Below the pieces are notes generated by a model. The model had not been told where the DNA came from, did no database searches, and saw only the letters and a program-made list of their open reading frames with translations. Positions 2,707 to 22,619 of a DNA stretch of 23,199 nucleotides are shown piece after piece (position 1 is the first letter of the stretch; the number at the start of each line of letters is the position of its first letter). This DNA comes from Candidatus Thorarchaeota archaeon (lineage in GTDB: Archaea; Asgardarchaeota; Thorarchaeia; Thorarchaeales; Thorarchaeaceae). Location of the stretch: NCBI GenBank assembly GCA_016840855.1, contig JAEORO010000038.1, forward strand, positions 1 through 23,199, written 5' to 3'. Position numbers and translations under genes: made by a program.

Positions 2707-3588
2707 TTAAAATGACTCGTGATACGTTTTGAAGAAGTCATCCGGACCCAAGCGCATTGTTTCAATCAATTGATTACGTCCCAGATTAGATTCAATCACT
2801 TGAGCCATATGGGCACCTGTAACATACCAAAGTCTTTCTCTATCGCTCATTCTGTCAAGTATTTTCCAATCATTCTTGTGAATTGGAGTATCAGCTCGAA
2901 TCTCCAATTTTGTGAAAATATCGAAAAATTCTGAAACTCGTTTCTTTCTTGCTCTATCATCAAGAAACAGCCTATAATCCCGGTTATTTAGTGCTTTAGC
3001 AGTCCTTCTTTGTTCTAGTATGGAGTAAATCGCAAGACCTTCCATATGAGTACAGTATTTGATTACATCACACAACTGATTTGTTCGATGAACCTGATTA
3101 AGATCAAATATCGGGTTATAGGCGGTATAGACTACATGATGTAACTCGTGCATTGACATTAACAGAATCTCATCAGGATTCTTGTTATACTCAGGATGAC
3201 CTAAGTTTAATAGAGCAGTACCTTCAGATACAATTCCAATGTCATACCCTAGGATAGCATAAAGAATGCTTCTTTGATTTGTTCCTTCAGGAAAATAGTT
3301 CCATAAATCTGTAAGTAGTTTATTGAATCTGTTAGTTTCATTATGTAGATAGGTAAGACCATCCTTTACGTAATTCATCAAATTCTTATTCTTTGACAGT
3401 TGCTTCATAATGTCTTTCCAGAATGGTCCAATGCTCTTTCGCGTCTTTTGAAATCTGAGCGCGTGTTTGTGAGTCTTTATAGCAGCATCATGTTTGGTTA
3501 TCTCAATCAACAATTCCTTACTGGGTTTTGAAAGATATTGGAGTAATGGCACAATGAATGATGTATCGATTTTTACTGATAATGGCAT
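2707..3588 (-). CDS. Putative Zn-dependent peptidase (DUF5700/DUF2268-like gluzincin)
   Basis: HELHH (HExxH) followed ~35 aa later by EGLA, with a C-terminal Y-x2-G motif. The start is uncertain (ATG 3588 preferred, ORF open to 3651). Confidence 0.75.
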   Translation of the reverse strand: MPLSVKIDTSFIVPLLQYLSKPSKELLIEITKHDAAIKTHKHALRFQKTRKSIGPFWKDIMKQLSKNKNLMNYVKDGLTYLHNETNRFNKLLTDLWNYFPEGTNQRSILYAILGYDIGIVSEGTALLNLGHPEYNKNPDEILLMSMHELHHVVYTAYNPIFDLNQVHRTNQLCDVIKYCTHMEGLAIYSILEQRRTAKALNNRDYRLFLDDRARKKRVSEFFDIFTKLEIRADTPIHKNDWKILDRMSDRERLWYVTGAHMAQVIESNLGRNQLIETMRLGPDDFFKTYHESF

Positions 3589-3786
3589 GAGTAAATCACT
3601 CGTTTTCAAAAAGATAATGAATTTCAGGAGATGTTGGTCTAGAGGCATCATTAACTAATATTTTGAAAGATAGATTATGATTTCAAGACAGTCTATAATT
3701 ATCTTATGGCACCTCCATAATTCTGTTTCCCAAAGATGCCCATAAACTTTCAAATTTCACCGGATTCACCAATTTCTGAGTTGTCT

Positions 3787-5616
3787 TCACTTGGATGGAG
3801 AAGCTAATTTTGTGAAACGGTTTCTGAAGAGTCGATCAAGAGCTTGCATTAGTGGTATTGCACTTATCAAGAAAATGACACCCTCTCCGGTTTTGATAGA
3901 GAAGATTTCACCAACAAAAGCGAATAGTCCACTGAAGATTAGGTAGAGGATGATAGCGACTACAAGAATCGGCAACCAGACCAAGAATGCTGCGTGAAAT
4001 TGAAATCTATGGCGGAATGCTGAGAGAGAAAGGACAAAGCAGATTGCTGTAAGAACAGATGGGAGAAACCATCCACTCAGTAGAAAACTCTCCCCATATG
4101 ACTCAATGAATTCGAACAATGAAAGGCTTGTTCGTCCCTCAATTATAATAAAAGGTAGAATAAACCCTAAACTTAGTGTGATTGTTCCAATAACATAAGG
4201 TATCTCTCGAACCAATTGAATTCTTCCAGGTTGCCATAAGTGTATATGAATAACAAATAGTATCCCTATACTGGATAAGACGAGCAAAACAGGAAACAGG
4301 ACGGAACCTGATTTTCCTATAAGAATCTCTGATGAAATTTGAGTCGAGTCTTCTTGAAGAGATACGACAAAGAGGAGTACCTTCCCCATGGTCAATGGAA
4401 CGATCTCACCAGAGTAGACATTGGGGGATGGACTACTACTATCTTTCAACTCAGTAGACAACCAAAGAGCACCCGGTTCACTCGATCTCCAGTACAAAAT
4501 GACTGTATTAGTGTCATTGGTTTCTACTTCTGCCTTGAGAGAGATTCCTTGAACAGATAGTAGGTTATCGATGGAGAGGTGAGATCTTGGTAGTGGTGCT
4601 CCATCTCCAAAGTGGCTATCGATCCATCTGATGACATTATAAGTCCAGTGAGGTTTAACCCCGTGTCCCCAATTGGGAACTATGTCTAAGGTGAGATCAG
4701 TCGGTATGGAATTAACGGTATCCATCATTGATGTGATTGGGAAAAATTGATCGTCTGTGCCAAACATCATTAAAACTGGATTAGTTAGTAGCCTAGTGTA
4801 CGCAAGTGGATCAAACCATTTGATTATGTTGTTCATTTCAATGGAGTCAATTGTGTATGTAGGTGCTATTACCAGATTAAGGAGAGAGCCAGAAACCAAC
4901 GAATTACGGAAATTCCCAGCCGCCAACATCGGAATGGACCCATCAACACGAGAATCGATTCCCGAAAGAATGAAGGTAACCAAGCCGCCCATCGAGTTAC
5001 CTGCAACAATTAGTGCATCTGTCCTCACAAAGGTTAATGATTCAAGTAGTGTTACTGCACGTGTTGCAGCCCACACAGAGTGGAAAAGACTGGAGTCTTC
5101 AGGTCCAGATGTCACATTCAAGAATGTGAACGGATTCAATTCCGGGTATCCTGTAGAATTACCTGAACCGGGCTGGTCAATCCCCATGACTATAAATCCG
5201 GCAGCAGCAAATTCTCTTAGCATCTGCAAGTGGTCTGAGTATTGCTCGTCATAACCATGGAGATATAGAATTGTGGGTTTTGGAGAAGTTAGATTCTGTT
5301 TAGCAAGAATCACTGAGTTAATGGTCACTTCCACATCCTTGTGAACTTCGCTTACATAGTTAAAATACCACTCATCAATAGACACACTTGTATTCTGATA
5401 CTCGATTATATTACTCCTTGATGAGAAATTGTGTACATTGACAGGTGATTCGATTGCACTTGTAAGGTTCCAAAAGCTAGTGTCATAAACCTCCTCTGAT
5501 GGAACAGATGCGTATCGTTCAGGATAGTCTGAACCTACAACGAATAGCATTGCTGTGATACTACCAAGGAATAACATCATCACAACTAAAACAAGGACTG
5601 ATACTCTTCTTGTCAT
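3787..5616 (-). CDS. Membrane-anchored alpha/beta hydrolase (acetylxylan esterase/dienelactone hydrolase-like)
   Basis: N-terminal signal/anchor MTRRVSVLVLVV, oxyanion LHG, nucleophile GNSMGG, candidate Asp in GTDD and His in WGHG, plus 4-5 C-terminal TM helices. Start set at ATG 5616. Confidence 0.85.
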   Translation of the reverse strand: MTRRVSVLVLVVMMLFLGSITAMLFVVGSDYPERYASVPSEEVYDTSFWNLTSAIESPVNVHNFSSRSNIIEYQNTSVSIDEWYFNYVSEVHKDVEVTINSVILAKQNLTSPKPTILYLHGYDEQYSDHLQMLREFAAAGFIVMGIDQPGSGNSTGYPELNPFTFLNVTSGPEDSSLFHSVWAATRAVTLLESLTFVRTDALIVAGNSMGGLVTFILSGIDSRVDGSIPMLAAGNFRNSLVSGSLLNLVIAPTYTIDSIEMNNIIKWFDPLAYTRLLTNPVLMMFGTDDQFFPITSMMDTVNSIPTDLTLDIVPNWGHGVKPHWTYNVIRWIDSHFGDGAPLPRSHLSIDNLLSVQGISLKAEVETNDTNTVILYWRSSEPGALWLSTELKDSSSPSPNVYSGEIVPLTMGKVLLFVVSLQEDSTQISSEILIGKSGSVLFPVLLVLSSIGILFVIHIHLWQPGRIQLVREIPYVIGTITLSLGFILPFIIIEGRTSLSLFEFIESYGESFLLSGWFLPSVLTAICFVLSLSAFRHRFQFHAAFLVWLPILVVAIILYLIFSGLFAFVGEIFSIKTGEGVIFLISAIPLMQALDRLFRNRFTKLASPSK

Positions 5617-5714
5617 GGATCTATCACAGCATATTGAACCATGAGAGGACCCTAACAAAGGCTTTTTGGAAGAGATGAGATGTGAAACAATCTTCTAGCC
5701 TAATGGTGATTTTC

Positions 5715-7025
5715 TCAGGGCTTGAGTACTTCTTTTATCTTCTCGACTTCTTTCTCGCCCGTGGGTGTGTCCTCAATGACGTAAAGGATGGTACCAAGGA
5801 ATAGTGCAGTGAAACCTAGAATAATGCTAAGTGGCGATAGAGTTAGTGAGATAAATACACAGGATAACGCCCCAAGAATAGGGAACAATGGCCCAAGTGG
5901 TAGCTTAAAGTAACCTCTTTTAGGCTCGATATAGGATTCATTCCTTGTCAGGACAAATGCGCTTACATTGACAAAGAACATGGCAATAATCTGTGCGATA
6001 TTCACAAGTTCGATAATAGAATCTAACGCTCCATAAAGAATGAACAACAACGCCACAGCTGATCCTAAAATAATTGCATTCGTGGGTTGTCTGTTTCTGA
6101 GTTTGGCAAATCTTCCTGGTATTTGCTTCTCACTTGCCATTTCCATCACTATTCTGGATGCGCCTGCAGTGAGTGCATTGGCTGAAGACAAAGTGGATAA
6201 GACAGCTCCAAGAGCTATAATGGTTCCACCTATTGGTCCTATTAGTACCACTGCTGCATCAAAGACACTTTCGCTTCCATAAGTCGGAAGATTGGCAGCA
6301 AGTAATGCGATTATCACACCGATATAAACTAGGGCCACAATGACAATTGATGCAAGCATTGCAACTGGTACTTTCTTATTTGACTCTTTCACTTCACCAG
6401 CCATCATGGTGATTACTTGAAAACCCATATACGCGAAAAAGACCATCGTCACTCCCTGAAAAACACTTGATATTCCGTGGGTTGGAGATGAAGTAAAAAC
6501 TGAAACCTGAAAATGCAGAAGCCCAAAAATGGAAAACAGAATGAGGATTAACACTTTTGTGCCAACGACTGCAAGCTCGAATCTACCTGCTTCTGCAATA
6601 CCTCTGATGTTTAGAACGGTGAGTAGTAGCAAAGCAGCTGCTGCAAAGATTCTAGGATCGACGCTTATTGAAAGAAGCAGGTTTAGGTATATTCCAAATC
6701 CTAAGAGTACAAAAGACAACACAATGGGTTGGGCAATATACATGATCCACCCTGTTAAGAATCCAGGATACTTCCCAAGCATCTTCTCAGCATAAAGATA
6801 GCCTCCTCCGTCCTCAGGGAATATACTTGCTAAGGAGGCATATGAGAGTCCTGAAAATGCTACTAGCACTGCACAGATAATGTATGAGAATAATGCTTCG
6901 AATCCTGCTGTGTCAATAATTAAACCACTCAAGACAAAAACGCCAGCTCCAATCATTGTGCCTACTGCAAAGGTGATTGCAGTGAATGTGCTTAGTCCTT
7001 CACTCCGTTTGCTATAGTCAGTCAT
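5715..7025 (-). CDS. APC superfamily amino acid permease
   Basis: TM1 GTMIGAGVF, GGGYLY, TM6 FFAYMGFQ, EVKE..K.VP.A and ~12 TM helices. Confidence 0.92.
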   Translation of the reverse strand: MTDYSKRSEGLSTFTAITFAVGTMIGAGVFVLSGLIIDTAGFEALFSYIICAVLVAFSGLSYASLASIFPEDGGGYLYAEKMLGKYPGFLTGWIMYIAQPIVLSFVLLGFGIYLNLLLSISVDPRIFAAAALLLLTVLNIRGIAEAGRFELAVVGTKVLILILFSIFGLLHFQVSVFTSSPTHGISSVFQGVTMVFFAYMGFQVITMMAGEVKESNKKVPVAMLASIVIVALVYIGVIIALLAANLPTYGSESVFDAAVVLIGPIGGTIIALGAVLSTLSSANALTAGASRIVMEMASEKQIPGRFAKLRNRQPTNAIILGSAVALLFILYGALDSIIELVNIAQIIAMFFVNVSAFVLTRNESYIEPKRGYFKLPLGPLFPILGALSCVFISLTLSPLSIILGFTALFLGTILYVIEDTPTGEKEVEKIKEVLKP

Positions 7026-7220
7026 TCTTATCAGCTCTTGATTATATCCCCATTTTTTCTGAAATATAGTGAACTAGAGGCTCATCAATAACGGTCACTC
7101 TAAGGTTTGGTGCTCTATTTTCAATGGAACTCTTTGCCATTGTTCTCACAAAAGTAGGAATTCTAGCCAAGATCTCCAATCTCCATTATTTTAATAGATT
7201 AAAAGATATAATTTATTTAT

Positions 7221-7241
7221 CAAGGGTTTAGGCAACCCTTG
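7221..7241. terminator. Hairpin just downstream of ORF 7247-7624
   Basis: Perfect 8-bp stem CAAGGGTT-TAGGC-AACCCTTG, 5 nt past the stop codon. No U-tract follows on the minus strand, so its function is uncertain. Confidence 0.4.
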
Positions 7242-7246
7242 TCAAA

Positions 7247-7624
7247 TTATTTTCGTGTCAACCTTTCGCGCTCATCGCGAAGCCATTTAATCTCTTCATG
7301 ATATTCGATATTATCCATGTAGTCATGTTTCACCTGATGTGATAATTTGGCCAATTCACAAAGATGCTCTCGCTTCTCCCAAATCTTTGAAATTCTCACA
7401 CTGAACAAATATTGTTCATTCTTTCTGAGATCTCTTATAAGTTGCTTGACACACTGATCAATCTTTGACAAATCTTTCTTTGTGAGATGTTCCAACGGTG
7501 GATAGGTTATGGAGTGTTCAATCATCTGAAGAACAACTATTGAGCGTGCATCCAAATCCTCTTTTTTGGCTTTTTCAAAATCTTCAATTAAGCTACTTAT
7601 TCCTTGCATATTCTTCATCACCAT
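7247..7624 (-). CDS. Hypothetical small helical, charged protein
   Basis: 125 aa ORF filling the gap, on the same strand as its neighbours. No recognisable motif. Confidence 0.6.
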   Translation of the reverse strand: MVMKNMQGISSLIEDFEKAKKEDLDARSIVVLQMIEHSITYPPLEHLTKKDLSKIDQCVKQLIRDLRKNEQYLFSVRISKIWEKREHLCELAKLSHQVKHDYMDNIEYHEEIKWLRDERERLTRK

Positions 7625-7702
7625 TTGTATAATTTCATTGTATTATCACTGTTTCTTCATTAGTTTTGAGAGTGGAGGGTATCTCATTATTGAATATAAT
7701 CA

Positions 7703-9001
7703 TCACCGTTCCAGTGCTGCTGTCATACAGTGAGCTGCACCATAGCCACCTGTGAGGTTTTTCAAGACCATTGGGTAGGCATCGATTCCGTGTTGATAGA
7801 TTTCTCGTTTATGAGGGAAAAACTCTGATTCATCTTTCAGAAATTGAAAGTCTTTCTGTGCCTGTTCAAGAAGAGCACTATAACGCTCAGGCTCTGCTTT
7901 GGCCTTGGTTTGAAGATTGAATAGAACATCTTTGATGTCTCTCTCAACTTCAACAGCTAATATCGTACCATCCTTGATTGTTAGAAAATTGGATGCATAA
8001 CTCAACTGTTCAAGTGTTGTTATTCCAATCACATCAAAGCCCCAGCCTGTGATGTAGCTGAGCAAATCCGTAGATTTCTTATCTTTCTCATAAGCACCCG
8101 GCCCTGTTCTTGTATAGACGTCAACATTGGCCTGTTTCAGAAGCGGTTTGAGACCAACTGCGACACCACTCGAGGCAATATTGAAGTAAGTATCAAGATG
8201 CATGTCAATCATTGGGTCTACGGCATTGATTGGAACCAAAGGATGATTGGGTTGATGAACAACCCCGATTTCATCAAAATCAACACCATGTTTCAGGAGC
8301 TGCTTGATTCCAGATTTATTCGTGCGATCTCCGACACCAACAAGAGCGAAATCTTTCAAGGGAATGAAATCTCCACCTTCAAAGGTCCCTGGTGCTGTAA
8401 CGGTATGTACGACATCAGTCCCTAAGACATCCCATAGTATTCTTGTGACGACGGGTTCTCTTCTCCTCTGAGGTTTGCTCATTCGAGAGAGGAAGACACC
8501 CTTGTCAGTGACAGCCTGCTGGTCCCTCATGAAATAAAGATTCGATAATGGCTGTCGCTCAGTGATATTTAGGTGAATCACTCTTGCCCCCTTCTGGCTC
8601 TCCAGTTCAATCTGGGGATTGAGGAGAAGTACATTGAGAAAGTGACTAGGATCTAAAATACCCTTATTCTTTGAGAGTTCTTCGCGTGCGAGTTTTACGT
8701 CGGATTTAGTGCCAGTCACATCAATTGTATTATATGCAGCATCAACAAGTTTGTCATGAACCTCTGTGTTTCGTTCAGCAGTTTCTATGATTCTTTCCCT
8801 CAATCGAATGACATTAACTTGAAACTCATGCTGGAGTACATGTTCCAGACGCTCATGTTCTCGTATTGCACCATTTTGACTAAACGCTCTTTCATAGAGT
8901 GAGGCATATGGTTCCAAAAGACCGAAGAACATCTCCATCCCAGGTCTATGAATTGCGATGGTGCGAAGCCTATCCCATTCAGCCTTAATCCTAGATTTCA
9001 T
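7703..9001 (-). CDS. arcA: Arginine deiminase
   Basis: Pentein motifs YFMRD, EGGD, MHLDT and GYGAAHCMT (catalytic Cys). ATG 9001 follows a GGAGG SD and overlaps the OTC stop by 11 nt. Confidence 0.92.
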   Translation of the reverse strand: MKSRIKAEWDRLRTIAIHRPGMEMFFGLLEPYASLYERAFSQNGAIREHERLEHVLQHEFQVNVIRLRERIIETAERNTEVHDKLVDAAYNTIDVTGTKSDVKLAREELSKNKGILDPSHFLNVLLLNPQIELESQKGARVIHLNITERQPLSNLYFMRDQQAVTDKGVFLSRMSKPQRRREPVVTRILWDVLGTDVVHTVTAPGTFEGGDFIPLKDFALVGVGDRTNKSGIKQLLKHGVDFDEIGVVHQPNHPLVPINAVDPMIDMHLDTYFNIASSGVAVGLKPLLKQANVDVYTRTGPGAYEKDKKSTDLLSYITGWGFDVIGITTLEQLSYASNFLTIKDGTILAVEVERDIKDVLFNLQTKAKAEPERYSALLEQAQKDFQFLKDESEFFPHKREIYQHGIDAYPMVLKNLTGGYGAAHCMTAALER

Positions 9002-9929
9002 CCTGAGTGCCTCCCAGATAAAAGTCAAAGAGCCCGATGGCTCCATACAGCTTATTCTCTCCTTGTGCCCAGACAATTGATTGGTCCCCTTCAATCACAT
9101 CATCCGTGATTTCAAGACCTCTGTGTGCAGGTAGACAGTGCATTACTACAGCATCTTTGGCAGCAAGTGCTAGTAGGTCCGCATTAATCTGATATCCTTT
9201 GAAAGTATGAAGCCGTTCCTCTCTCTCATTTTCCTGGCCCATGCTGACCCAGACATCAGTATAGAGAATATCCGCATCTTTTGCAGCTTGGGTAGGATTA
9301 CGAACTATTCGAAGCTTTGATCCTGTTTCAGCAGCAATCTTTTCTGCTTTCTTGAGGATTGTCCCGTTCGGATCATACCCTTCAGGGCATGCCAAATTCA
9401 TATTCATTCCTGTTAATGCTGTACCTAATAACAGAGAATTAGAAACATTATTTCCATCTCCAATGAATGCCAAGGTCAACCCCTCTAGATGCTTCTTGAC
9501 CTCTCTAACTGTGAATAAGTCACACACTACTTGTGTTGGGTGTTCTAAATCGCTCAGTCCATTGAATACAGGAATATTGGAATATCTAGCAAGATCAGTA
9601 ACTGTTTGATGACTGTAGACTCTTGCGATAATCGCATCTAGATAGCTCCCAAGGATTCGGGCTGTATCTTTTATTGGTTCACCACGACTAAGTTGAAGTT
9701 CACTTGATGGAAGATAGACTGCTTCACCACCAAGGCGTAGTGCTGCAGTTTGAAAGCTTGTGCGCGTCCGGGTAGAGGGCTTCTCAAAGAGAAGCCCAAC
9801 AACCTTATTCTTCAGGACATGCACACTCTCATGATTCTTTAGCTGCCTCTTGATCTTCAGCGATCTGGAGAAGATTTTCTCCATCTCATCTGAGGAGATA
9901 TCTGCGACAGATAGTATAGAGTGTGCCAT
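8991..9929 (-). CDS. argF: Ornithine carbamoyltransferase (probably catabolic by context)
   Basis: STRT, HPTQ, DVWVSMG and HCLP motifs. ATG 9929 follows a GAGGTGA SD. Confidence 0.96.
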   Translation of the reverse strand: MAHSILSVADISSDEMEKIFSRSLKIKRQLKNHESVHVLKNKVVGLLFEKPSTRTRTSFQTAALRLGGEAVYLPSSELQLSRGEPIKDTARILGSYLDAIIARVYSHQTVTDLARYSNIPVFNGLSDLEHPTQVVCDLFTVREVKKHLEGLTLAFIGDGNNVSNSLLLGTALTGMNMNLACPEGYDPNGTILKKAEKIAAETGSKLRIVRNPTQAAKDADILYTDVWVSMGQENEREERLHTFKGYQINADLLALAAKDAVVMHCLPAHRGLEITDDVIEGDQSIVWAQGENKLYGAIGLFDFYLGGTQDEI

Positions 9930-9942
9930 AGTGTTATCACCT

Positions 9943-11523
9943 CTAGGTATTGATTTCCTTTGTGTTGGCTTTGTAAGCCCATGCAAAAATGAGAATCGCG
10001 ACAATTGTGACAACAATCATGTCATAGGGCATTGGAATTAGACCAAGTGGACTAATTGGTAGGAAGTTCTCGTAGATAAAGTTCGTATCGCCCACATACG
10101 ACATCACGATGATGAATACTAGATAGACTAGTATCCATAGATTTCGAGTGAACTCAAACTTTTTGTCCTTGAATGTTAGGTATAGCGGGTAACCGATAAG
10201 CATCAAAACCGCCCCTATCAAGGTCCAAGGCCATGAAGCCCAATAGACCAAGAGAGTCGCTAGAATGAATCCCAAACCTGTAATCACAATGGGCATTGGC
10301 AGCTTGAACGGTCTATCAACAGTTGGTCGTGTCTTTCTCAGAATTGGTACAGACAGGACCGCTGCCGCATAGGGTACAAGAGCTGTTATCGATGCTATGA
10401 GAGCTACAGACGGAAAGTTTGGTATGAATATCTGAATAATCATGGTCAGGATTGACGCGAATATTAATGCAACATGTGGAGTTCCCCACTTATGATGCAC
10501 CGAATCCATTGGCCCCCAGAATAATCCGTCCTTTGCCATAGCGTATGGAATCCTACCCTGAAGCAAGACCCAATCGCCACCACTACCTGCAGTTGAAATA
10601 AGTGCTCCAATTGTTGCTATTATGGCAAGAATTGGCAGACCTGCAGCTTGTGCAATATCTGATAATGGCGACGTTAGATTACCAATACTACCCCAGTCGC
10701 CAGCTGAAATTCCAAGACCGGTCCAGTTGATCATTCCAACAAATGCAACTGCAATCAAAACATAGACTACTATCACGATGCCCATGGTCAATAGCATTGC
10801 GCGTGGAATAGTCTTCTCTGGATTCTTGACCTCTTCAGTGGGTACTACCACCGACTCAAAACCTGTAAAGGCCCAGAACTCAAAAGCCATCGCCAAAGTT
10901 ATTCCTGTGAGGCCAAATGGTAGTAGAGGCACAAAGTTTACTCCACTGAGAAAAGAGAGCCCTACAGCTGCGAAAACAATTAGTGGAATTATTTTACCAA
11001 CGGTTGTTACTAAGCTATAGAGACCGCCCCATTTTACGCCAACGACATTGATTGATGTGAATATCCATAGAGCAATCACTGCAATAGTGATACCGACAGG
11101 AGTCAGAGTTTCTCCAACAGCTAGGCCCGGTATCCAGAATGCCAAGTAGGTCACAAAGATGTCGATGATAGCTGCTGTTCCTACAAAAGCATACAGAAAG
11201 TATCCCCAGCCCATTAGAAAACCACCGGTGTCCCCAAGTGCTAGTCTAGGCAGTGAATATGGTCCCCCACTGAGGGGAAATGCGGAACCTAATTCTGCAT
11301 AAGAAATAGCTAACAGTGTTGTCACGATGCCAGTCAACACAATAGCAATTATCAGTGCTGGACCTGCAACAGATCCCATTACAGCAGGCATGGCAAACAT
11401 GCCAGAACCTATTATGCTCCCTACACCTAGTGCAACAAGAGTAGTCAATCCAAGGTCTCGTTTTAGCTCACCTTGATTTGCCTCCTCTTTTTCTTGAGTT
11501 TGTTGAGAGCTGTTTTTTGTCAT
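9943..11523 (-). CDS. APC amino acid permease (candidate arginine uptake or arginine/ornithine antiporter)
   Basis: GSIIGSG, ELGSAFP.SGG.Y, FWAFTGFE, EEVKNP..TIPRA and ~14 TM. GGAGG SD. Substrate inferred from the operon. Confidence 0.9.
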   Translation of the reverse strand: MTKNSSQQTQEKEEANQGELKRDLGLTTLVALGVGSIIGSGMFAMPAVMGSVAGPALIIAIVLTGIVTTLLAISYAELGSAFPLSGGPYSLPRLALGDTGGFLMGWGYFLYAFVGTAAIIDIFVTYLAFWIPGLAVGETLTPVGITIAVIALWIFTSINVVGVKWGGLYSLVTTVGKIIPLIVFAAVGLSFLSGVNFVPLLPFGLTGITLAMAFEFWAFTGFESVVVPTEEVKNPEKTIPRAMLLTMGIVIVVYVLIAVAFVGMINWTGLGISAGDWGSIGNLTSPLSDIAQAAGLPILAIIATIGALISTAGSGGDWVLLQGRIPYAMAKDGLFWGPMDSVHHKWGTPHVALIFASILTMIIQIFIPNFPSVALIASITALVPYAAAVLSVPILRKTRPTVDRPFKLPMPIVITGLGFILATLLVYWASWPWTLIGAVLMLIGYPLYLTFKDKKFEFTRNLWILVYLVFIIVMSYVGDTNFIYENFLPISPLGLIPMPYDMIVVTIVAILIFAWAYKANTKEINT

Positions 11524-11539
11524 TATTTTTCCTCCGATT

Positions 11540-13981
11540 TTATATTTCTTCTATTAATTCGAGACCACCATGTTTGTAGAAGGTAGTCTTCAACACGTCA
11601 GTGATTAAGAACCACACTAGAGCATAGCCCCACACGAAAAGCGCAAGACCCCAGCCCATTGCGGGAAGTAAGAAACCATATACTGTGATTAATGTGGCAA
11701 CCAATTGTGTGCCTAAAATTGCAGAAATCAGTGGCAGTGCAGGTTTCACTGACCAGAATGGACCCCGTGTTCGGGCAACAAGAAGCGTTAGGTGCCCAGC
11801 AACGGAGAGCTTGAGATAGATGAATGACTGAAGAACTTCACGACTTAGGTGAAAGATTACATCTCCAATCACAAAGATTCCAAAAGATGCAACTACACCA
11901 ATGATTCCAAGATAGGTCGCCATGCCTAGGAGCATCTTTGAGTTCCATCTCTCTGGAGCTTTGGAATACTTTACATTATCATAGGCGATGGTAATTATTG
12001 GTAAGTCATTAAGCAGCGCAAGTAATACAATCATAATAGGAGTGACTGGATAAAATTGGAATACAAGTATTGATGCTGCGATGAAAAGAATTACCCTTAT
12101 AGATTCAGCGATGCGATAGATCGAATAGTTACTCATCCGCTGGAAGATTTTCCTACTGTTCTTTATCGCGTCGACGATTACTGAAATGCCCACTCCTGTA
12201 AGGACAATATCAGCGGCCGATTTGGCAACATCGGTTGAGCCTTCTACAGCTATTCCCACATCTGCTTTCCTGAGAGCTGGGGCATCATTGACACCATCTC
12301 CGGTCATTCCAACAATGTGATTCTTTTGCTGAAGGAGGGATACAATCCTATACTTGTGTTCCGGAAAGACCTGTGCAAATCCATCCACGGATTCTACGAT
12401 AGGTTCAGCCTTCTCATCGGGGACATTTTCGAAGTCCTTTGGTAAAGCCATATTTTGTCCCAGACTGACTCTACTTGCAATCTCCTTCCCAATTGCTTCA
12501 TGGTCACCAGTAACCATCTTGACGTTAATCCCCATTCTTTGTGCACTTGCAATGGTTTCAGCAGAGTCATCACGAGGTGGGTCGAAGAGCGCTAATAGAC
12601 CAACAAACTGCCAAGTACCTGATGAATCGGTCTTTGCGACACCCAGGGAGCGATAACCTCTCTTAGCAAAAGACAGTACGTCCTTGTTGATTTGTTCACA
12701 GACACTTTTTGGCTCCTCTGAAAGACCTGAAATTACCTGTGGAGCTCCTTTTGACACCTTGAATCGAGTGCCACCAGAGGACTCGAATAGACCTTCAGTA
12801 CGTTTGGATACAGGGTCGAATGGTTTGAACTCAAGTCGGTCTTCCTCCGAGATGATTTCAAGATTAGGAACAGAGTCAGCACGATGAATTATTGCATCAT
12901 CAATGGCATCGTTGTTTCCTCTTTTGGATGCCATGGTCCCAAAACGTAGAACATCATTCTCTGTGAAGTCTCCATAAGGTCTAATTTCACCTACACTTAG
13001 CTTGTTCTGGGTTATCGTTCCAGTCTTATCTGTACAAAGAATATCTACTCCTGCCATCTCTTCGATAGCTGCGAGTTTGCTAACAATCGCGCCTTTCTTG
13101 GCAAGAGCCACAGCGCCAACAGCCATTGTCACAGAGAGAACTGCTGGTAGAGCCACGGGGATTGCGGCCACTGTTAGAACAAGAACGAATCTAATATTCT
13201 CTAGAATATCGTATCCTCGTATAATTCCTGCTGTAAGAACAACAGCTGCTAGAGTGATAGCTAAAGCAATTAGGTAATTGCCAATCTTCATAATGATTTT
13301 TTCAAAATGACTTTTCGTTACTGCTTCTTCAACAAGCTTGGCGGTTTTACCATAGTAAGTATTCATACCAGTGTTAATTACGAGACCTTCCATCTCGCCC
13401 ATTTGAACGGGGGATCCTTGAAAGGAAATATCACCAATTTTTTTGTCTACTGGCAAGGATTCGCCAGTAAGGGCTGACTGATCTACTGATAGGTAGTTCC
13501 CTGAAATTAGCTTTAGATCAGCTGGAGTTACATCTCCGGGACGCACCCGTACGATATCTCCAGGGACAACCTCTCTAGCAGGAAGTTGCTTCCAGTCGCC
13601 ATCACGTAGAACACGAGCTGTAGGTGATAGTCGTTGTTTGAGTTTCTCAATCGCATTGTCCGCTTTGTTCTCCTGATAGAAACCAACAATTCCGTTCATT
13701 ACTAACATTAGAGTTATTATCCAAAAATCTGGCCAATGTTGAACAATTGCTGAGAGAATCATAGCTGCTTCTATCATAAAGGGTATTGGTCCCCAGAAGT
13801 ATCGTAGGAATTTCAATATCGGGTTTACTTTTTTCTCTATGAGTTCATTAGGACCATATTTTTTGAATCTTAATTGTGTTTCTTCAGAGGAAAGTCCAGC
13901 AGGATTAGAATTCAGTGCATTGTACAACTCATCAATGGTTAAGTCTTCAGATTCTTTGGTTGTCAAAATGTTGGTACTCAT
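11540..13981 (-). CDS. P-type ATPase, P3A plasma-membrane H+-efflux type
   Basis: TGES, PVALPAV (TM4), DKTGTIT, KGAPQ, DPPRDD, FAQVFPEHK, GDGVND and TM6 ALLND carrying the proton-acceptor Asp. No long C-terminal autoinhibitory tail. Confidence 0.93.
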   Translation of the reverse strand: MSTNILTTKESEDLTIDELYNALNSNPAGLSSEETQLRFKKYGPNELIEKKVNPILKFLRYFWGPIPFMIEAAMILSAIVQHWPDFWIITLMLVMNGIVGFYQENKADNAIEKLKQRLSPTARVLRDGDWKQLPAREVVPGDIVRVRPGDVTPADLKLISGNYLSVDQSALTGESLPVDKKIGDISFQGSPVQMGEMEGLVINTGMNTYYGKTAKLVEEAVTKSHFEKIIMKIGNYLIALAITLAAVVLTAGIIRGYDILENIRFVLVLTVAAIPVALPAVLSVTMAVGAVALAKKGAIVSKLAAIEEMAGVDILCTDKTGTITQNKLSVGEIRPYGDFTENDVLRFGTMASKRGNNDAIDDAIIHRADSVPNLEIISEEDRLEFKPFDPVSKRTEGLFESSGGTRFKVSKGAPQVISGLSEEPKSVCEQINKDVLSFAKRGYRSLGVAKTDSSGTWQFVGLLALFDPPRDDSAETIASAQRMGINVKMVTGDHEAIGKEIASRVSLGQNMALPKDFENVPDEKAEPIVESVDGFAQVFPEHKYRIVSLLQQKNHIVGMTGDGVNDAPALRKADVGIAVEGSTDVAKSAADIVLTGVGISVIVDAIKNSRKIFQRMSNYSIYRIAESIRVILFIAASILVFQFYPVTPIMIVLLALLNDLPIITIAYDNVKYSKAPERWNSKMLLGMATYLGIIGVVASFGIFVIGDVIFHLSREVLQSFIYLKLSVAGHLTLLVARTRGPFWSVKPALPLISAILGTQLVATLITVYGFLLPAMGWGLALFVWGYALVWFLITDVLKTTFYKHGGLELIEEI

Positions 13982-14062
13982 TCGATCATCTTCAGTGTTT
14001 TTGTTAAGCGAACATTGCTTTCAGAAAGTGGCGAGGCAGAATTATTCTTAAACAGGTGTGAG

Positions 14063-14074
14063 TGTGATATCACA
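14063..14074. promoter_or_regulatory. Perfect 12-bp palindrome TGTGATATCACA, putative operator
   Basis: Sits in the divergent spacer between the ATPase operon and the TrmB gene, just downstream of TATA-like TTCTTAAA (14045-14052). Confidence 0.5.
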
Positions 14075-14111
14075 GTTACAGAGAGATAGATTTGAGAACA
14101 AGGTGACCATA

Positions 14112-15530
14112 TTGAGTATAGAAAACACTCGAAATATCGAGATACTCTCAGAATTCGGACTTACGGAAAGCCAAGCAAAAGTTTTCATCGCCATAATTCA
14201 GTTAAAGAATCCAACGGTCGCCGAAGTGGCTGAAGCGTCGGAAGTCCGTAGAGAAGAGATCTATCGACTTCTTCCTGATCTTGAGAATATGGGGCTAGTT
14301 GAGCGTCTTCTGGGAAAACCACTTCGATTACGATCTCCCGATCCAAAATCATCAATCTCTACATTAGTCAAGCTTGAAAGGGAGAGAGCTAAAGCTCGGA
14401 TTTCAGATTTATCAATCAAATCTCGTGATTTTTTGGTACAATTAAGACAACAGGATATAGAAATCGATACTGATGGGATTCTCACTTCTGATTTTTCGTT
14501 AATTCAAGAAAAAGAGTCGATTAGGACTGTATTATATGACATGCTAAGTAAGTCAACAAAACAGGTGGACCTGCTATTTTCTCGACCAGATTTGATATGG
14601 TTATTATCGACACATGGTGAGATACTTAGAAAAGCTGCAGAACATGCAGTAAAAATTAGAATTATGAGTGAACCTCCATCTGGACGTGATAGGCTTCCTA
14701 AAATAATTCAAAGGCGATTTCCCGAAAATGTTGAGATATCACTGAGATATCTTTTGTTTCCTACAGCTTTCTTTCTCATTGTGGATCTATCTCAACTGTT
14801 ACTCATTACATCCGGCGTTCATCATCTACCTGCTTCTAATTGCTTATGGACTAACAACGAGAGCTTGATTGCTTTGACACACAAGGACTTTGAAAACTTA
14901 TGGAATGAGTCAGCTTCTTGGAAAACAGTTGATGGTGTGTCAATGACTATTTCACCCCAAGATAGTTCTAATGGAGGAACATCACATATACATAGGCTAT
15001 TGCTCTATCGATCTAGCGATACCAAGTACAAAGTATTATTCAATTTTCTAAGAGAACGTCAAAAAGACAGTGTAGTCGCCATCTATGTCTGCACAAAGGA
15101 TTGCGTGGAAGCTGTAAAAGAGGCGATGATTGCATTTGGTTTTGATAGAAAATCAATTGCGAAAGGGGAGGATATCAAAATTATAGATTGGAATTCCTTA
15201 CTTCTGGACGATGGCAAATTTAGCGTGGAAAGAGCCATTGATGCATGGGATGAGCTCTTTTTCGAATCTCAGGAGAAGGGATTCAAAGGTATTGCTGTGG
15301 TCACTGAAATGCAATTCTTCTTCGAAAACAATATGATAGAGACCCTCGAAGATTATGAAAATCACATTCATGGCATGCTGGATAGTCAAATGGTTTTCAA
15401 GTGCGCATACGATGAACAAACTTTACTCAATACTGAGAGTCCTTTGGAACTTTATGCGCGATTACTAGGATTGCATACCACCCTACTAACGGAAGATAGA
15501 GGGAAGATAGAACGACTCAGAACAAGATGA
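14112..15530 (+). CDS. TrmB-family transcriptional regulator with C-terminal MEDS sensory domain
   Basis: N-terminal FGLTESQAKV...IYRLL.DLE..GLV wHTH, a central TrmB effector-binding-like domain, and C-terminal H-x-LLLY...VVTEM.FF...DYE...CAYD typical of MEDS. Start TTG 14112 follows a GGTGA SD (ORF open from 14058). Confidence 0.85.
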   Translation: MSIENTRNIEILSEFGLTESQAKVFIAIIQLKNPTVAEVAEASEVRREEIYRLLPDLENMGLVERLLGKPLRLRSPDPKSSISTLVKLERERAKARISDLSIKSRDFLVQLRQQDIEIDTDGILTSDFSLIQEKESIRTVLYDMLSKSTKQVDLLFSRPDLIWLLSTHGEILRKAAEHAVKIRIMSEPPSGRDRLPKIIQRRFPENVEISLRYLLFPTAFFLIVDLSQLLLITSGVHHLPASNCLWTNNESLIALTHKDFENLWNESASWKTVDGVSMTISPQDSSNGGTSHIHRLLLYRSSDTKYKVLFNFLRERQKDSVVAIYVCTKDCVEAVKEAMIAFGFDRKSIAKGEDIKIIDWNSLLLDDGKFSVERAIDAWDELFFESQEKGFKGIAVVTEMQFFFENNMIETLEDYENHIHGMLDSQMVFKCAYDEQTLLNTESPLELYARLLGLHTTLLTEDRGKIERLRTR

Positions 15531-16863: not shown

Positions 16864-17259
16864 ATGGTCGATATTTTACAAAAAGAGGTTCTATATGGGT
16901 TTGATGAAACAGTAAAGAAAGTTGAAGAAGCGTGTGTAAGTGAGGGGTTTGGTCTGCAGCTCACGAAAGGAGTGCATGATATCTTTGAACAGAAGTTAGG
17001 GATTAATGATTATCCAAAATACACTGTAATCCTCGTATGTAACCCACACCTTGCAAAGAAAGCACTCGACATATCAAAGGACATGGGCACAATCTTTCCA
17101 TGTAGTTTCACAGTCTACGAGGAAAATGAAAAGGTGATGGTCGCTCATACCTCAATCATGAAGATTGGCGTAGAAATAGGTCTTGTTTCTCAAGAGGAAA
17201 TGGAGCCTTTGATTAAGGAAACAGGAAAGCGCATTCGAAAAGTGTGGGATAAAATCTAA
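16864..17259 (+). CDS. DUF302 domain protein
   Basis: Pattern Y.F.ETV...GF...Y.ILVCNP..A..AL....G...PC...VYE. Confidence 0.85.
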   Translation: MVDILQKEVLYGFDETVKKVEEACVSEGFGLQLTKGVHDIFEQKLGINDYPKYTVILVCNPHLAKKALDISKDMGTIFPCSFTVYEENEKVMVAHTSIMKIGVEIGLVSQEEMEPLIKETGKRIRKVWDKI

Positions 17260-17303
17260 TGAAATTCGAAAGCTTCAGAAGAGTTGAGTTCTCCTTTTGA
17301 GTC

Positions 17304-18080
17304 ATGGAAGATAGAATTCGTGAACAGTGGGAAAGAAATGCTGAAGCCTTCTCAAGTCTTATTGATGGGAAAGGAACCCCACACCATAGCAAAATACTGA
17401 ACCCATGTGTCGAGAGGCTTTTAGGAGATGTGATGAACAAAAAGCTCCTTGATGCAGGCTGCGGTGAGGGGTACTTGGCTAGATACTATGCAATGAAAGG
17501 AGCAAATGTGACTGCAATTGATGTGTCACAACAGCTTATTCGGACCTCAAAGCGATTATCGGAACAGGAAGGAGTCAAAATAGAGCATCGGGTTGATAAT
17601 ATCTGCCAGATGAATACTATTCCTGACAATGCGTTTGATATCATCATTTCCAATCTAGTCTTGCTAAATGTGCCTTGTTTGGACAATGCTATGAAAGAGT
17701 TTCACAGGGTTTTGAAAATAGGTGGTGTGTTGGTATTCTCAATAGTCCATCCAGCTTTCAACTTCTATGGTCCGGGTTCCTGGGAAATGGGGGAGAAAAA
17801 TCCTGATACGAATAGAAGAGTGGGACTTTATTTCAAAGTTGATCGTTATTTCGAAGAGGAGGAGTATGAGCACTACTGGAAGAACAAGCAAGGGGAGAGG
17901 TTCCCAGAACCCATCATTTTTTTCCACCGGACACTGTCAACATACTTTAACTCAATAACACGTGCAGGTTTTCATCTGATAGAGTTCGCAGAACCTCAAC
18001 CTATTGATAATGACGAGTTTTTTGACCGAGAGAGAAGGATACCTTTTTTTGCTGTCTTTAAAGTGATGAAAAGCGAGTAG
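17304..18080 (+). CDS. Class I SAM-dependent methyltransferase
   Basis: Motifs LLDAGCGEG, AIDVS, FDII.SN, RVLK.GG.LVFS..HP and FHRTLS.Y. Confidence 0.92.
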   Translation: MEDRIREQWERNAEAFSSLIDGKGTPHHSKILNPCVERLLGDVMNKKLLDAGCGEGYLARYYAMKGANVTAIDVSQQLIRTSKRLSEQEGVKIEHRVDNICQMNTIPDNAFDIIISNLVLLNVPCLDNAMKEFHRVLKIGGVLVFSIVHPAFNFYGPGSWEMGEKNPDTNRRVGLYFKVDRYFEEEEYEHYWKNKQGERFPEPIIFFHRTLSTYFNSITRAGFHLIEFAEPQPIDNDEFFDRERRIPFFAVFKVMKSE

Positions 18081-18137
18081 TGTGCAAAGACCAAGCTTTT
18101 TTCATTGGTAATGTTAGACGGGGAGTAGGTGTGTCAA

Positions 18138-18572
18138 GTGAGTGAAGAACCTAGACTCTATCCTGTGAAACTTGTATGGACTGGCGGGAAGAGTGGCAGT
18201 CTTTTGGTTGATAGTAAAGTACCAATTAAGACAGGAATACCTTCTGGTGGATCTAACGAAGCTATGTATCACTCTCCTGAAGATCTCTTTGTCGCATCAG
18301 CTGCAATTTGTTACATGAATGGATTTGTTGAGTTCACAAGAAAGATGCGTATCGAGTTCAAATCATTCGAGTGCGATGCTATTGGGACTCTTGAAAGAGT
18401 TGAAAGAAGTTACGAGGTCACCAAGATAGACATGAAAGCAAAGGTGGTAATTGATACTGAAGAAATAAGAAACAGGATAGATCGAGCACTTGCACTCGCT
18501 GCAAAATATTGCTTTATTGGGTCAAGTATGAAGTGTCCAATTTCGCATGAAACTGAGGTTCTTGTTAAGTGA
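18138..18572 (+). CDS. OsmC/Ohr family protein (paralogue 1)
   Basis: SPEDLF.A....C and AAKYC.I..S, so both Cys are retained. GTG start at 18138 or 18129. Confidence 0.88.
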   Translation: MSEEPRLYPVKLVWTGGKSGSLLVDSKVPIKTGIPSGGSNEAMYHSPEDLFVASAAICYMNGFVEFTRKMRIEFKSFECDAIGTLERVERSYEVTKIDMKAKVVIDTEEIRNRIDRALALAAKYCFIGSSMKCPISHETEVLVK

Positions 18573-18616
18573 TATAACCAAACTCTTTTTCGTAGGGCTG
18601 TAACTAGTGAAACTGG

Positions 18617-19060
18617 ATGAATGAGATGACAGATGACACACATGAATACGTTGTCAGAGTAGATTGGAAACAGGGTCGTGTTGGAAACCTCTTTGTTGAA
18701 GGGAAACCAAATGTTGAGGTTTCAGCGCCACCAGAGTTTGAAGGACCGAAGGGAATAATATCTCCAGAGGACCTTTTTGTGGCTGCTGCAACCTCTTGTT
18801 TCATGACAACCTTTGTGACATTCACTAAGAAGATGCATATCGAGTTCAAATCATTCTCATGTGAAGGACAAGGTACTCTTGAACGAGTTGACAAGGGCTA
18901 CCAATTCACGAGAATTCGTTTGAAGACCAAGGTTGAGGTTGAGTCAGAAGACCTTAAACCTAAGGCTGAGCGAGCGCTTGATTTGGCTGGAAAATACTGC
19001 TTGGTTAGTAACTCTATGAAGTGTCCTACCGACCATGTGAATGAGATAGTTGTAGGGTAA
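18617..19060 (+). CDS. OsmC/Ohr family protein (paralogue 2)
   Basis: PPEF.G, SPEDLFVAAATSC and KYCLVSNS. The start could be ATG 18626. Confidence 0.9.
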   Translation: MNEMTDDTHEYVVRVDWKQGRVGNLFVEGKPNVEVSAPPEFEGPKGIISPEDLFVAAATSCFMTTFVTFTKKMHIEFKSFSCEGQGTLERVDKGYQFTRIRLKTKVEVESEDLKPKAERALDLAGKYCLVSNSMKCPTDHVNEIVVG

Positions 19061-21923: not shown

Positions 21924-22619
21924 ATGAAAGCCGTACTCAAAATTGGAGGTTCGCTCCTCTATGACGATGACGGTCACGTTCGTATTGACCGGCTGAGAGA
22001 GTACGCTGAGTCAATCAAGTCCTTTGTCAAAGAGGGACACTCACTGGTTGTTGTGGTTGGTGGTGGTAGACCAGCACGCATCTTTATTTCTGCAGCTCGC
22101 GAGCTTGGTGCAAATGAGGCACAATGCGATTGGCTTGGAATTAAACTTGCCAGAAATAATGCTGAGTTACTATGTGCAGCCCTCGGTTATTTTGCATACC
22201 CCAAAATAATTGATGACTATGATGAGTTAGAAGTAGCAGTCAATCTTGGCAAAGTCGTGTTGTTGGGAGGTATGGTGCCCGGCCAGTCAACTAATGCTGT
22301 GGCTGCAGCTGCTGCGGAACTGATTCAAGCGGACATGTTGCTCAACGCAACTAATGTTGACGGTGTCTATGACCGCAATCCAGAAGAAAAGGGTGCTAAG
22401 AAATTGGACGAGGTTGACATCATTCAATTAAGGAATATTCTTTCTTCCGAAGGAACAATGGCAGGACAATACAACCTGTTTGATCCAGTAGCGATTGGAA
22501 TCGTTGAACGATCAAGAATTCCGACTGTGATATTCAATGGAAACAACCTAGACAACCTGAAAAAGGCTTTCAACAAAGAAAAGATTGGAACCCGAATCAC
22601 ACACAGCAATAAAGAATGA
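21924..22619 (+). CDS. pyrH: UMP kinase (archaeal type)
   Basis: Motifs KIGGS, VVGGG..AR, D.LGI...R.NA, PGQSTNAVAA, TNVDGVY..NP and AG.Y.LFD. Confidence 0.96.
   Translation: MKAVLKIGGSLLYDDDGHVRIDRLREYAESIKSFVKEGHSLVVVVGGGRPARIFISAARELGANEAQCDWLGIKLARNNAELLCAALGYFAYPKIIDDYDELEVAVNLGKVVLLGGMVPGQSTNAVAAAAAELIQADMLLNATNVDGVYDRNPEEKGAKKLDEVDIIQLRNILSSEGTMAGQYNLFDPVAIGIVERSRIPTVIFNGNNLDNLKKAFNKEKIGTRITHSNKE

Follow-up and report, generated by a model that had tools for sequence, protein, structure and literature searches.

Why should a proton pump of the kind that energises fungal and plant plasma membranes stand at the head of an arginine deiminase (ADI) cluster in an archaeon? The question is raised by a stretch of 23,199 nucleotides (nt) from a Candidatus Thorarchaeota archaeon (contig JAEORO010000038.1 of assembly GCA_016840855.1, our contig C142; hereafter the window), in which the genes for a predicted P3A-type H+-ATPase, an APC permease (APC1), an ornithine carbamoyltransferase (OTC) and an ADI follow one another on the minus strand. 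The genome comprises 3.36 Mb in 259 contigs and is 92% complete; an archaeal UMP kinase, an archaeal-type valine--tRNA ligase and TrmB regulators among the genes of the window (NCBIfam/Pfam) fit an archaeal source. As read from its sequence, the locus is an ADI cluster that includes a P3A proton pump of its own, present here in a reduced form. It is probable, though well short of assured, that this cluster constitutes a co-regulated module that would pair the NH3 and ATP derived from arginine with ATP-driven H+ export, in the service of pH homeostasis or of membrane energisation.

One line of evidence for this reading is the recurrence of the pairing. Among 301 sampled genomes of the Asgard phylum, P3A pumps, counted above the curated cut-off, were found in 46 and this type of ADI in 10; the former figure revises the first-pass annotation, in which P3A pumps had been regarded as sporadic in prokaryotes. 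In eight of the ten ADI-bearing genomes, families f12 and f13 included, pump and ADI lie on the same contig at most 3.5 kb apart. In one of the remaining two (G248), both genes lie on short contigs that break off just where the linkage would show, and the other (G173, 74% complete) gave no pump match. When the 80 loci returned for ADI homologues were searched for neighbours, carbamate kinase was seen in 52 (in 47 of them at most 400 nt from the ADI), OTC in 23, homologues of APC1 with at least 50% identity in 17 and a pump with at least 50% identity in nine. Five of these nine lie outside the genus of the window, with pumps of 1024–1092 bits that are each the only P3A match of their genome. 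Outside the genus, linked loci were found in f12 and f13, two other Asgard families that the phylum survey already includes, and in a Theionarchaeon (ADI-arcC-ATPase), a Thermoplasmatales-labelled metagenome-assembled genome (MAG; APC-OTC-ADI-arcC-ATPase) and a Nitrososphaerales MAG (APC-OTC-ADI-ATPase-ClC-Usp). In the order to which the Thermoplasmatales-labelled MAG (G302) belongs, 1 of 118 genomes carries ADI and 9 carry the pump, and the lone ADI cluster stands directly before the only P3A gene of its genome. Taken together, 13 genomes were found to hold both genes, which lie within about 3.5 kb of each other in 11, apart in one and on contigs that end too early for a judgement in one. As the 13 genomes are partly related and the loci overlap the surveyed genomes, they were counted as six lineages and not as rows: Thorarchaeota, two other Asgard families, the Theionarchaeon, the Thermoplasmatales-labelled MAG and the Nitrososphaerales MAG. 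A linkage confined to this one genome, set beforehand as refuting the idea, was not what was found; congeners keep the linkage, and archaea of other phyla show it too.

The linkage also appears to have been assembled repeatedly. The ADI-linked pumps need at least four state changes on the ATPase tree (57 rows), and the pump-linked ADIs at least four on the ADI tree (79 rows), so that a single clade of ADI-linked pumps spread by joint transfer was rejected. Gene order differs as well, the pump heading the cluster in Thorarchaeota and closing it in the other lineages. In f12, four loci show the order MCH-ATPase-APC, and one member carries AsnC-APC1-OTC-ADI-PALP-arcC exactly between MCH (cyclohydrolase) and ATPase. 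In the latter locus (L025), a pyridoxal-phosphate-dependent gene of the PALP family (11303–12181) lies between ADI and arcC, with an AsnC-type regulator at the head of the cluster. A bacterial MAG labelled Krumholzibacteriaceae (L038) was found to carry APC1-OTC-ADI-arcC with 64–71% identity to the proteins of the window, which suggests, by sequence likeness, that an archaeal cassette has passed between domains.

The assignment of the pump to P3A, proposed in the first-pass annotation, was upheld: the ATPase scored 1024.6 bits on TIGR01647 (cut-off 615.5) and 389.3 on the next subfamily model, P3B Mg. P-type motifs were located at D318 (in DKTGT), 172–175 (TGES) and 561–566 (GDGVND), and the closest solved relatives were AHA2 (5ksd, 618.9 bits), yeast Pma1 (7vh5, 611.6) and the Neurospora pump (1mhs, 600). 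Proton handling in AHA2 and Pma1 is ascribed to the acceptor Asp-684, the controlling Arg-655 and the opposing Asn-106 (PMC10654040, section 9). Residues N96, R629 and D659 of the window pump share alignment columns with Asn-106 in transmembrane segment (TM) 2, Arg-655 in TM5 and Asp-684 in TM6, the numbering of chain 5ksd_A being offset by 11 from that of AHA2. The equivalents of Asn-106, Arg-655 and Asp-684 are kept in 47, 48 and 48 of 48 main-clade relatives, respectively, and all three in all 11 ADI-linked pumps, bar one gap at the Asn. The window pump thus resembles AHA2 and Pma1 in its subfamily by curated model, in these three residues and in the conserved DKTGT and TGES motifs, and differs from them at its C terminus. 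AHA2 and Pma1 carry a C-terminal regulatory domain, whereas the window pump ends 14 residues past the last aligned membrane segment (alignment with AHA2, residues 12–799) and therefore has no autoinhibitory R domain.

The pathway enzymes and the permease were examined likewise. The ADI passed the Pfam family PF02274 (140.5 bits, cut-off 22.8) and failed the bacterial ArcA equivalog TIGR01078 (77 bits vs 489.1). Residues D160 (FMRD), R179, E208 (EGGD), H268 and D270 (MHLDTY) and C425 (HCMT) are invariant in 34 aligned ADI homologues, and the FMRD, RRRE, EGGD and MHLDT stretches align with the Mycoplasma and Streptococcus ADI chains; we take these residues to supply the catalytic Cys near the C terminus with its His, Asp and Glu, and the substrate-binding Arg. 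In the AlphaFold model (pLDDT 88.5) the protein adopts the guanidino-modifying alpha/beta-propeller fold and is nearest to solved ADIs. Among the Foldseek matches listed, ranks 1–11 and 18 are arginine deiminases (best E 2.5e-22, TM score 0.65–0.74), with amidinotransferases and DDAH from rank 27 on. By profile scores and predicted structure, the enzyme belongs to the archaeal/eukaryote ADI clan, as that clan is described in the available part of Novak et al. 2016 (PMC5052871), and not to the ArcA type to which it had been assigned at first. The OTC scored 404.1 bits on TIGR00658 (cut-off 280.85) and is 60–69% identical to the OTCs of ADI clusters in other phyla, and only 42% identical to a second OTC of the same genome (contig C157, 421.1 bits). 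APC1 scored 171 bits on AA_permease_2 and 273.5 on TIGR00909, below the cut-off of 556.8; its closest solved relatives were GkApcT (6f34, 121.9 bits) and AdiC (3ncy, 105.1). An ArcD-type antiporter was not supported by NCBIfam, the arginine-ornithine antiporter model giving 111.7 bits against a cut-off of 591. APC1, the permease that accompanies archaeal ADI clusters, is a likely arginine importer or arginine/ornithine exchanger.

The four genes are tightly coupled within the window. A gap of 16 nt (AATCGGAGGAAAAATA, carrying GGAGG) separates ATPase and permease, a gap of 13 nt (AGGTGATAACACT, carrying AGGTGA) separates permease and OTC, and OTC and ADI overlap by 11 nt, with GGGAGG 8 nt 5' of the ADI start; a Shine-Dalgarno site thus precedes each internal gene. 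Every detail of the coupling described in the first-pass annotation was reproduced on the minus strand. The longest open reading frames (ORFs) would place the starts of OTC and ADI at TTG 10016 and TTG 9094; both were rejected in favour of ATG 9929 and ATG 9001. Runs of five or more T were counted in the junctions of the four genes and none was seen. Since, in addition, the order ATPase-APC-OTC-ADI was found again in two congeners, the coupling exceeds chance. The GC content (0.43–0.45) and that of third codon positions (GC3, 0.37–0.40) of the four genes are in line with those of their neighbours, and a recent foreign insertion was rejected on these grounds. Contigs of other public runs gave, among those listed, no piece bridging the ATPase-permease junction (11523–11540). 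One contig of run X15 hinted at a joint 11560->13824, which was set aside as too weak (21 letters on one side). Contig ends from the same run lie loose at 11540 and 13845, both borders of the ATPase gene, which suggests a co-occurring strain with the same pump gene and other flanks.

The absence of arcC was examined separately. In the window, the NCBIfam scan returned no carbamate kinase, the sole amino-acid-kinase fold being that of the archaeal UMP kinase (21924–22619). Contigs of two other public runs, each from a different study (X11 record 1, 7000–9780; X14 record 11, 7078–8160), span the junction between ADI and the next gene, orf125, without arcC and with 0 differences, in agreement with the gene content first reported. 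No arcC remnant was seen in the 78-nt gap between ADI and orf125, where only the 3' end of ADI aligns with the congener. A carbamate kinase is encoded elsewhere in the genome, on contig C61 (370.2 bits, cut-off 358.25), beside RidA and enoyl-CoA hydratase genes, so that the distant kinase to which carbamoyl phosphate had been proposed to go does exist. This C61-type kinase is a genus-wide stand-alone paralogue, found in four of five congeners tested, one of them without ADI. In the congener G191, a second kinase (419.7 bits, 45% identical to the stand-alone kinase) lies exactly between ADI and orf125. Given the order ATPase-APC-OTC-ADI-arcC in G191 and the kinase close by in 47 of the 80 ADI loci, the lack of arcC, at first taken as part of the design of the cluster, is better regarded as a recent local loss.

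The loci of the genus form a series between a constant head (regulator and ATPase) and a constant tail (orf125, permease and hydrolase). The full ATPase-APC-OTC-ADI-arcC arrangement of G191 is followed by ATPase-APC-OTC-ADI without arcC in the window and, as far as its contig reaches, in G260, by ATPase-ADI only in G278, G218 and G197, and by the ATPase alone in G272. The full-cassette form branches outermost in the ATPase tree, so that the simpler reading of these sequences is that the arginine cassette was lost stepwise within the genus behind a constant ATPase. Decay of the pathway genes left in the window was rejected: the ratio of nonsynonymous to synonymous substitution rates (dN/dS) against G191 was 0.04–0.07 for all four genes, values that are rough given dS >1, and the remaining cluster genes are, as judged from these ratios, under strong purifying selection. 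In G272 (locus L127, contig C11, 6336–9076), orf125 lies directly 3' of the ATPase, with no ADI, OTC or permease, and 1760 N occupy the place where the regulator is expected; a 1731-amino-acid (aa) 'fusion' ORF at that locus was rejected as read-through of these 1760 N.

A mechanism may be proposed on this basis, for which we infer from sequence that the genes are co-transcribed, which ion is moved and in which direction, what the permease carries, that the distant kinase is used and what the trigger is (acid stress or energy limitation). In ADI chemistry, one NH3 is released at the deiminase step and one at the kinase step, and one ATP is gained per arginine with OTC and kinase. The permease would import arginine, ADI would free NH3 and yield citrulline, and the cluster OTC would phosphorolyse citrulline to ornithine and carbamoyl phosphate, from which the carbamate kinase encoded elsewhere in the genome would form ATP, NH3 and CO2. 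The P3A pump, the product of the first gene of the unit, would then use ATP to export H+. Acting together, the two arms would raise the cytoplasmic pH and use a fermentable amino acid, and no rotary ATPase, to restore the membrane potential. As plant and fungal P3A pumps move one H+ per ATP (PMC10654040), such a pump could keep working at gradients too steep for a rotary ATPase. A rotary A/V-ATPase is also encoded in the genome, on contig C25.

Several observations weigh against such a module. The link is facultative in both directions: no pump lies within reach in 71 of the 80 ADI loci, and ADI is missing from 37 of the 46 Asgard genomes that carry a P3A gene. Retention of the pump without the cassette in the genus means that the pump does not need the pathway. 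In the Nitrososphaerales order, ADI was found in 11 of 201 sampled genomes, nine without a P3A match, one (G359) with two P3A genes far away and one linked. In one of the six lineages (L026), pump and ADI are encoded on different strands and separated by 3 kb of DNA that holds unrelated genes. The public runs that carry the stretch are labelled marine sediment, mangrove and soil, and are not clearly acidic; among those listed for 7200–14100, none is an RNA run. Finally, proton transport has been shown for no prokaryotic P3A ATPase and, in the words of a review, 'remains to be determined' (PMC10654040, section 9).

The alternatives were weighed against these data. The strongest of them, which we nevertheless hold to be unlikely, is that in these fermentative archaea the pump is not an acid-defence device and, as in fungi and plants, routinely supplies the membrane potential on which H+-coupled import of amino acids and peptides depends, arginine fermentation being one convenient ATP source under the same control. 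This alternative overlaps with the coupled module and differs from it in physiological purpose only. The neighbourhoods of unlinked Asgard P3A genes speak for it, with APC permeases, M28 peptidases and S9/S33-type hydrolases adjoining them and a glycogen-phosphorylase-like gene, an H+-pyrophosphatase and universal stress proteins (Usp) also near, as do the second APC permease and the two putative peptidases behind the unit in the window and the nearest solved relative of APC1, GkApcT, which we take to be a proton-coupled transporter. The peptidase and permease neighbours, together with the sediment, mangrove and soil labels in place of acid sites, lean towards routine energisation. Against it, the minimal ATPase-ADI pair of three congeners, in which the ATP-yielding steps are absent at the locus, fits NH3 release with H+ export better, and the genome already has a rotary ATPase. 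At the Nitrososphaerales locus (L030, 6988–9141), genes for a CBS-domain ClC channel and for a Usp were found 3' of the ADI-ATPase cluster. ClC/CBS channels and Usp are classic companions of acid stress and here point to it; with the pair in three congeners, they lean towards pH homeostasis. The functional pump-arginine module put forward in the first-pass annotation has thus gained comparative support from the conserved and recurrent pairing, while acid stress and energisation, which it had left side by side, are not separated by these data.

According to a second alternative, which appears decidedly improbable, the two are neighbours without functional coupling: a mobile arginine cassette would have landed, or been kept, beside an independent pump by chance or at an insertion-tolerant spot. 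Such a view would account for a cassette gained and lost at a fixed site while the ATPase, orf125 and the downstream block stay, for the failure of both the ADI-linked pumps and the pump-linked ADIs to form a clade, and for the many ADI clusters and P3A genes that lack the other. It is countered by the 11 of 13 genomes with both genes within about 3.5 kb, for which about 0.2–0.4% would be expected of a random pair in a genome of 2–3.5 Mb (an estimate), by a link made at least four times with differing gene orders, and by operon-like junctions between pump and cluster, of 16 nt in the window and 36–156 nt in four other lineages (ORF calls). The weakest alternative, that the P3A label misleads and the pump moves NH4+, K+ or some other cation linked with arginine catabolism, can draw on the transport function left to be determined for prokaryotic P3A pumps (PMC10654040, section 9) and on a conceivable need to export the two NH3/NH4+ formed per arginine, and is made very improbable by the retention of all three AHA2/Pma1 proton-handling residues, by the 1024.6 bits on the P3A equivalog against 389.3 for P3B Mg and by the separateness of the clade that lacks the TM5 arginine (Gln in 9/9) from the ADI-linked pumps.

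The coupled module resembles known systems in part. Bacterial arc operons, such as those of Pseudomonas and lactic acid bacteria, comprise arcABC with arcD, and Halobacterium salinarum has an arcRACB cluster. These share with the window a deiminase, a catabolic OTC and an amino-acid permease in one unit (with the kinase too in the relatives of the window), as well as the chemistry and its yield of 1 ATP, 2 NH3 and CO2. Compared with arc operons, the window differs in its archaeal/eukaryote-clan ADI, a permease that is not ArcD by NCBIfam, the lack of arcC and a P-type pump as first gene. Oral streptococci and lactic acid bacteria reportedly achieve acid tolerance by combining the ADI system with the F1Fo-ATPase, as Marquis and co-workers are said to have described in 1987. 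There, too, arginine yields NH3 and ATP, and an ATPase spends the ATP on expelling protons; the streptococcal enzyme, however, is a housekeeping rotary ATPase encoded elsewhere, whereas the window has a dedicated single-subunit P3A pump in the cluster and a separate rotary ATPase. Full-text searches, with subscription journals and supplements outside their scope, returned no paper describing a P3A pump at the head of an ADI cluster or a pump-ADI pairing. In acid-soil archaea, arcA is treated as an acid-tolerance gene (PMC9287336, PMC10640624, available portions), and by term counts the word 'P-type' is absent from the available text of both papers. A survey of Asgard transporters mentions, in its accessible part, Ca, Cu and Mg P-type pumps and no H+ pump (PMC7997004).

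The new elements are therefore the commonness of P3A pumps in Asgard archaea (46/301), their recurrently assembled link to the ADI pathway and a decay series within one genus. The P3A pumps of microbes gain a testable context in acid or arginine induction and in H+ pumping fuelled by arginine-derived ATP, and the inference of 'acid tolerance' from the genomes of uncultured archaea, for which arcA is at present scored alone, could be refined. A review asks whether pH regulation was the first task of the P3A family, prior to its role in energising the membranes of plants and fungi (PMC10654040, section 9). A bolder and decidedly improbable proposal is that the Asgard pumps were already fungal- or plant-like, serving as ATP-fuelled membrane energisers and pH-stats on substrate-level ATP, with the arginine-pump modules keeping the original setting of the family, namely a simple control of pH fed by the fermentation of amino acids. 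If the Asgard pumps were the sister group of the eukaryotic ones, eukaryotic plasma-membrane energisation would trace to the archaeal host.

Other P3A-related genes were noted during the surveys. In a divergent P3A-like clade (L139, L123, L137, L120:5670-8081, L126, L060, L138, L124 and L125), Gln replaces the TM5 arginine in 9/9 members, while the TM6 Asp and the TM2 Asn are kept; the eight Asgard members of the clade scored about 690–790 bits on TIGR01647, L060 being outside the scoring. This clade, which is not the ADI-linked one, may represent a pump with altered ion handling. Tandem P3A genes from different clades of the tree were found in L102, L105 and L108 (family f9), near a glycogen-phosphorylase-like gene, universal stress proteins and M28 peptidases, with an H+-pyrophosphatase in five loci.

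The flanks of the unit (Table 1) are conserved as well. The divergent regulator scored 52.7 bits on Pfam TrmB and 64.1 on MEDS and adjoins the ATPase divergently in the loci of four congeners (61–70% identity) and of one family member (38%). A TATA-like AT-rich box, TTAAGAATA (minus strand, 14051–14043), about 62 nt 5' of the ATPase ATG, is kept as TTAAGAATA, TTAATAATA, TTATGAATA or TTAATAAAA in 6/6 aligned Thor-family loci and is, by its conservation, a candidate promoter element. Control of the pump is presumably transcriptional and exerted by the TrmB-MEDS gene. At the other end, orf125 follows the ATPase/ADI cassette in seven Thor-family loci (42–74% identity), also where the ADI is gone. 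Its product is a conserved soluble protein of six helices in which the motifs ITYPP, KIW.KR.HL and DYMD..EYHEE..WLR are invariant; dN/dS against a congener is 0.12. No Pfam or NCBIfam family, no Atlas neighbour and no Foldseek match at E<=0.001 was returned for it, and small ORFs beside the pumps of other families bore no obvious likeness to it, their profiles not being compared. With a hairpin (AAGGGTT...AACCCTT, 7240–7222) 3' of it, orf125 is probably the last gene of the unit. Behind it, the second APC permease and the hydrolase keep their order in the loci of five congeners, in one of which (G272) the DUF5700 gene was also seen.

Table 1. Features of the pump-deiminase locus and its flanks (positions in the window)
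Feature	Positions	Strand	Details
TrmB helix-turn-helix + MEDS regulator	14058..15530	+	490 aa by longest ORF; divergent from ATPase
Divergent intergenic region	13982..14057		76 nt, between regulator and ATPase
P3A-type (plasma-membrane type) H+-ATPase, predicted	11540..13981	-	ATG 13981 to TAA 11540, 813 aa
APC permease APC1	9943..11523	-	ATG 11523 to TAG 9943, 526 aa
OTC, ADI-cluster catabolic lineage	8991..9929	-	ATG 9929, 312 aa
ADI, archaeal/eukaryote-type	7703..9001	-	ATG 9001, 432 aa
orf125, conserved all-helical protein	7247..7624	-	78 nt 3' of ADI
Second APC permease, downstream block	5715..7025	-	Pfam
Alpha/beta-hydrolase or S33/S9-like peptidase, downstream block	3787..5658	-	Pfam
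DUF5700 putative zinc peptidase, downstream block	2707..3651	-	Pfam; whole block 2707..7025

Two further observations concern genes apart from the cluster. On the plus strand of the window, at 16864–19060, genes for a DUF302 protein, a SAM (S-adenosylmethionine) methyltransferase and two adjacent OsmC-family paralogues form a run that is conserved in the congener locus L127. In the congener locus L022 (16471–19479), a ribonucleotide reductase gene was found to carry an intein with a LAGLIDADG endonuclease domain.

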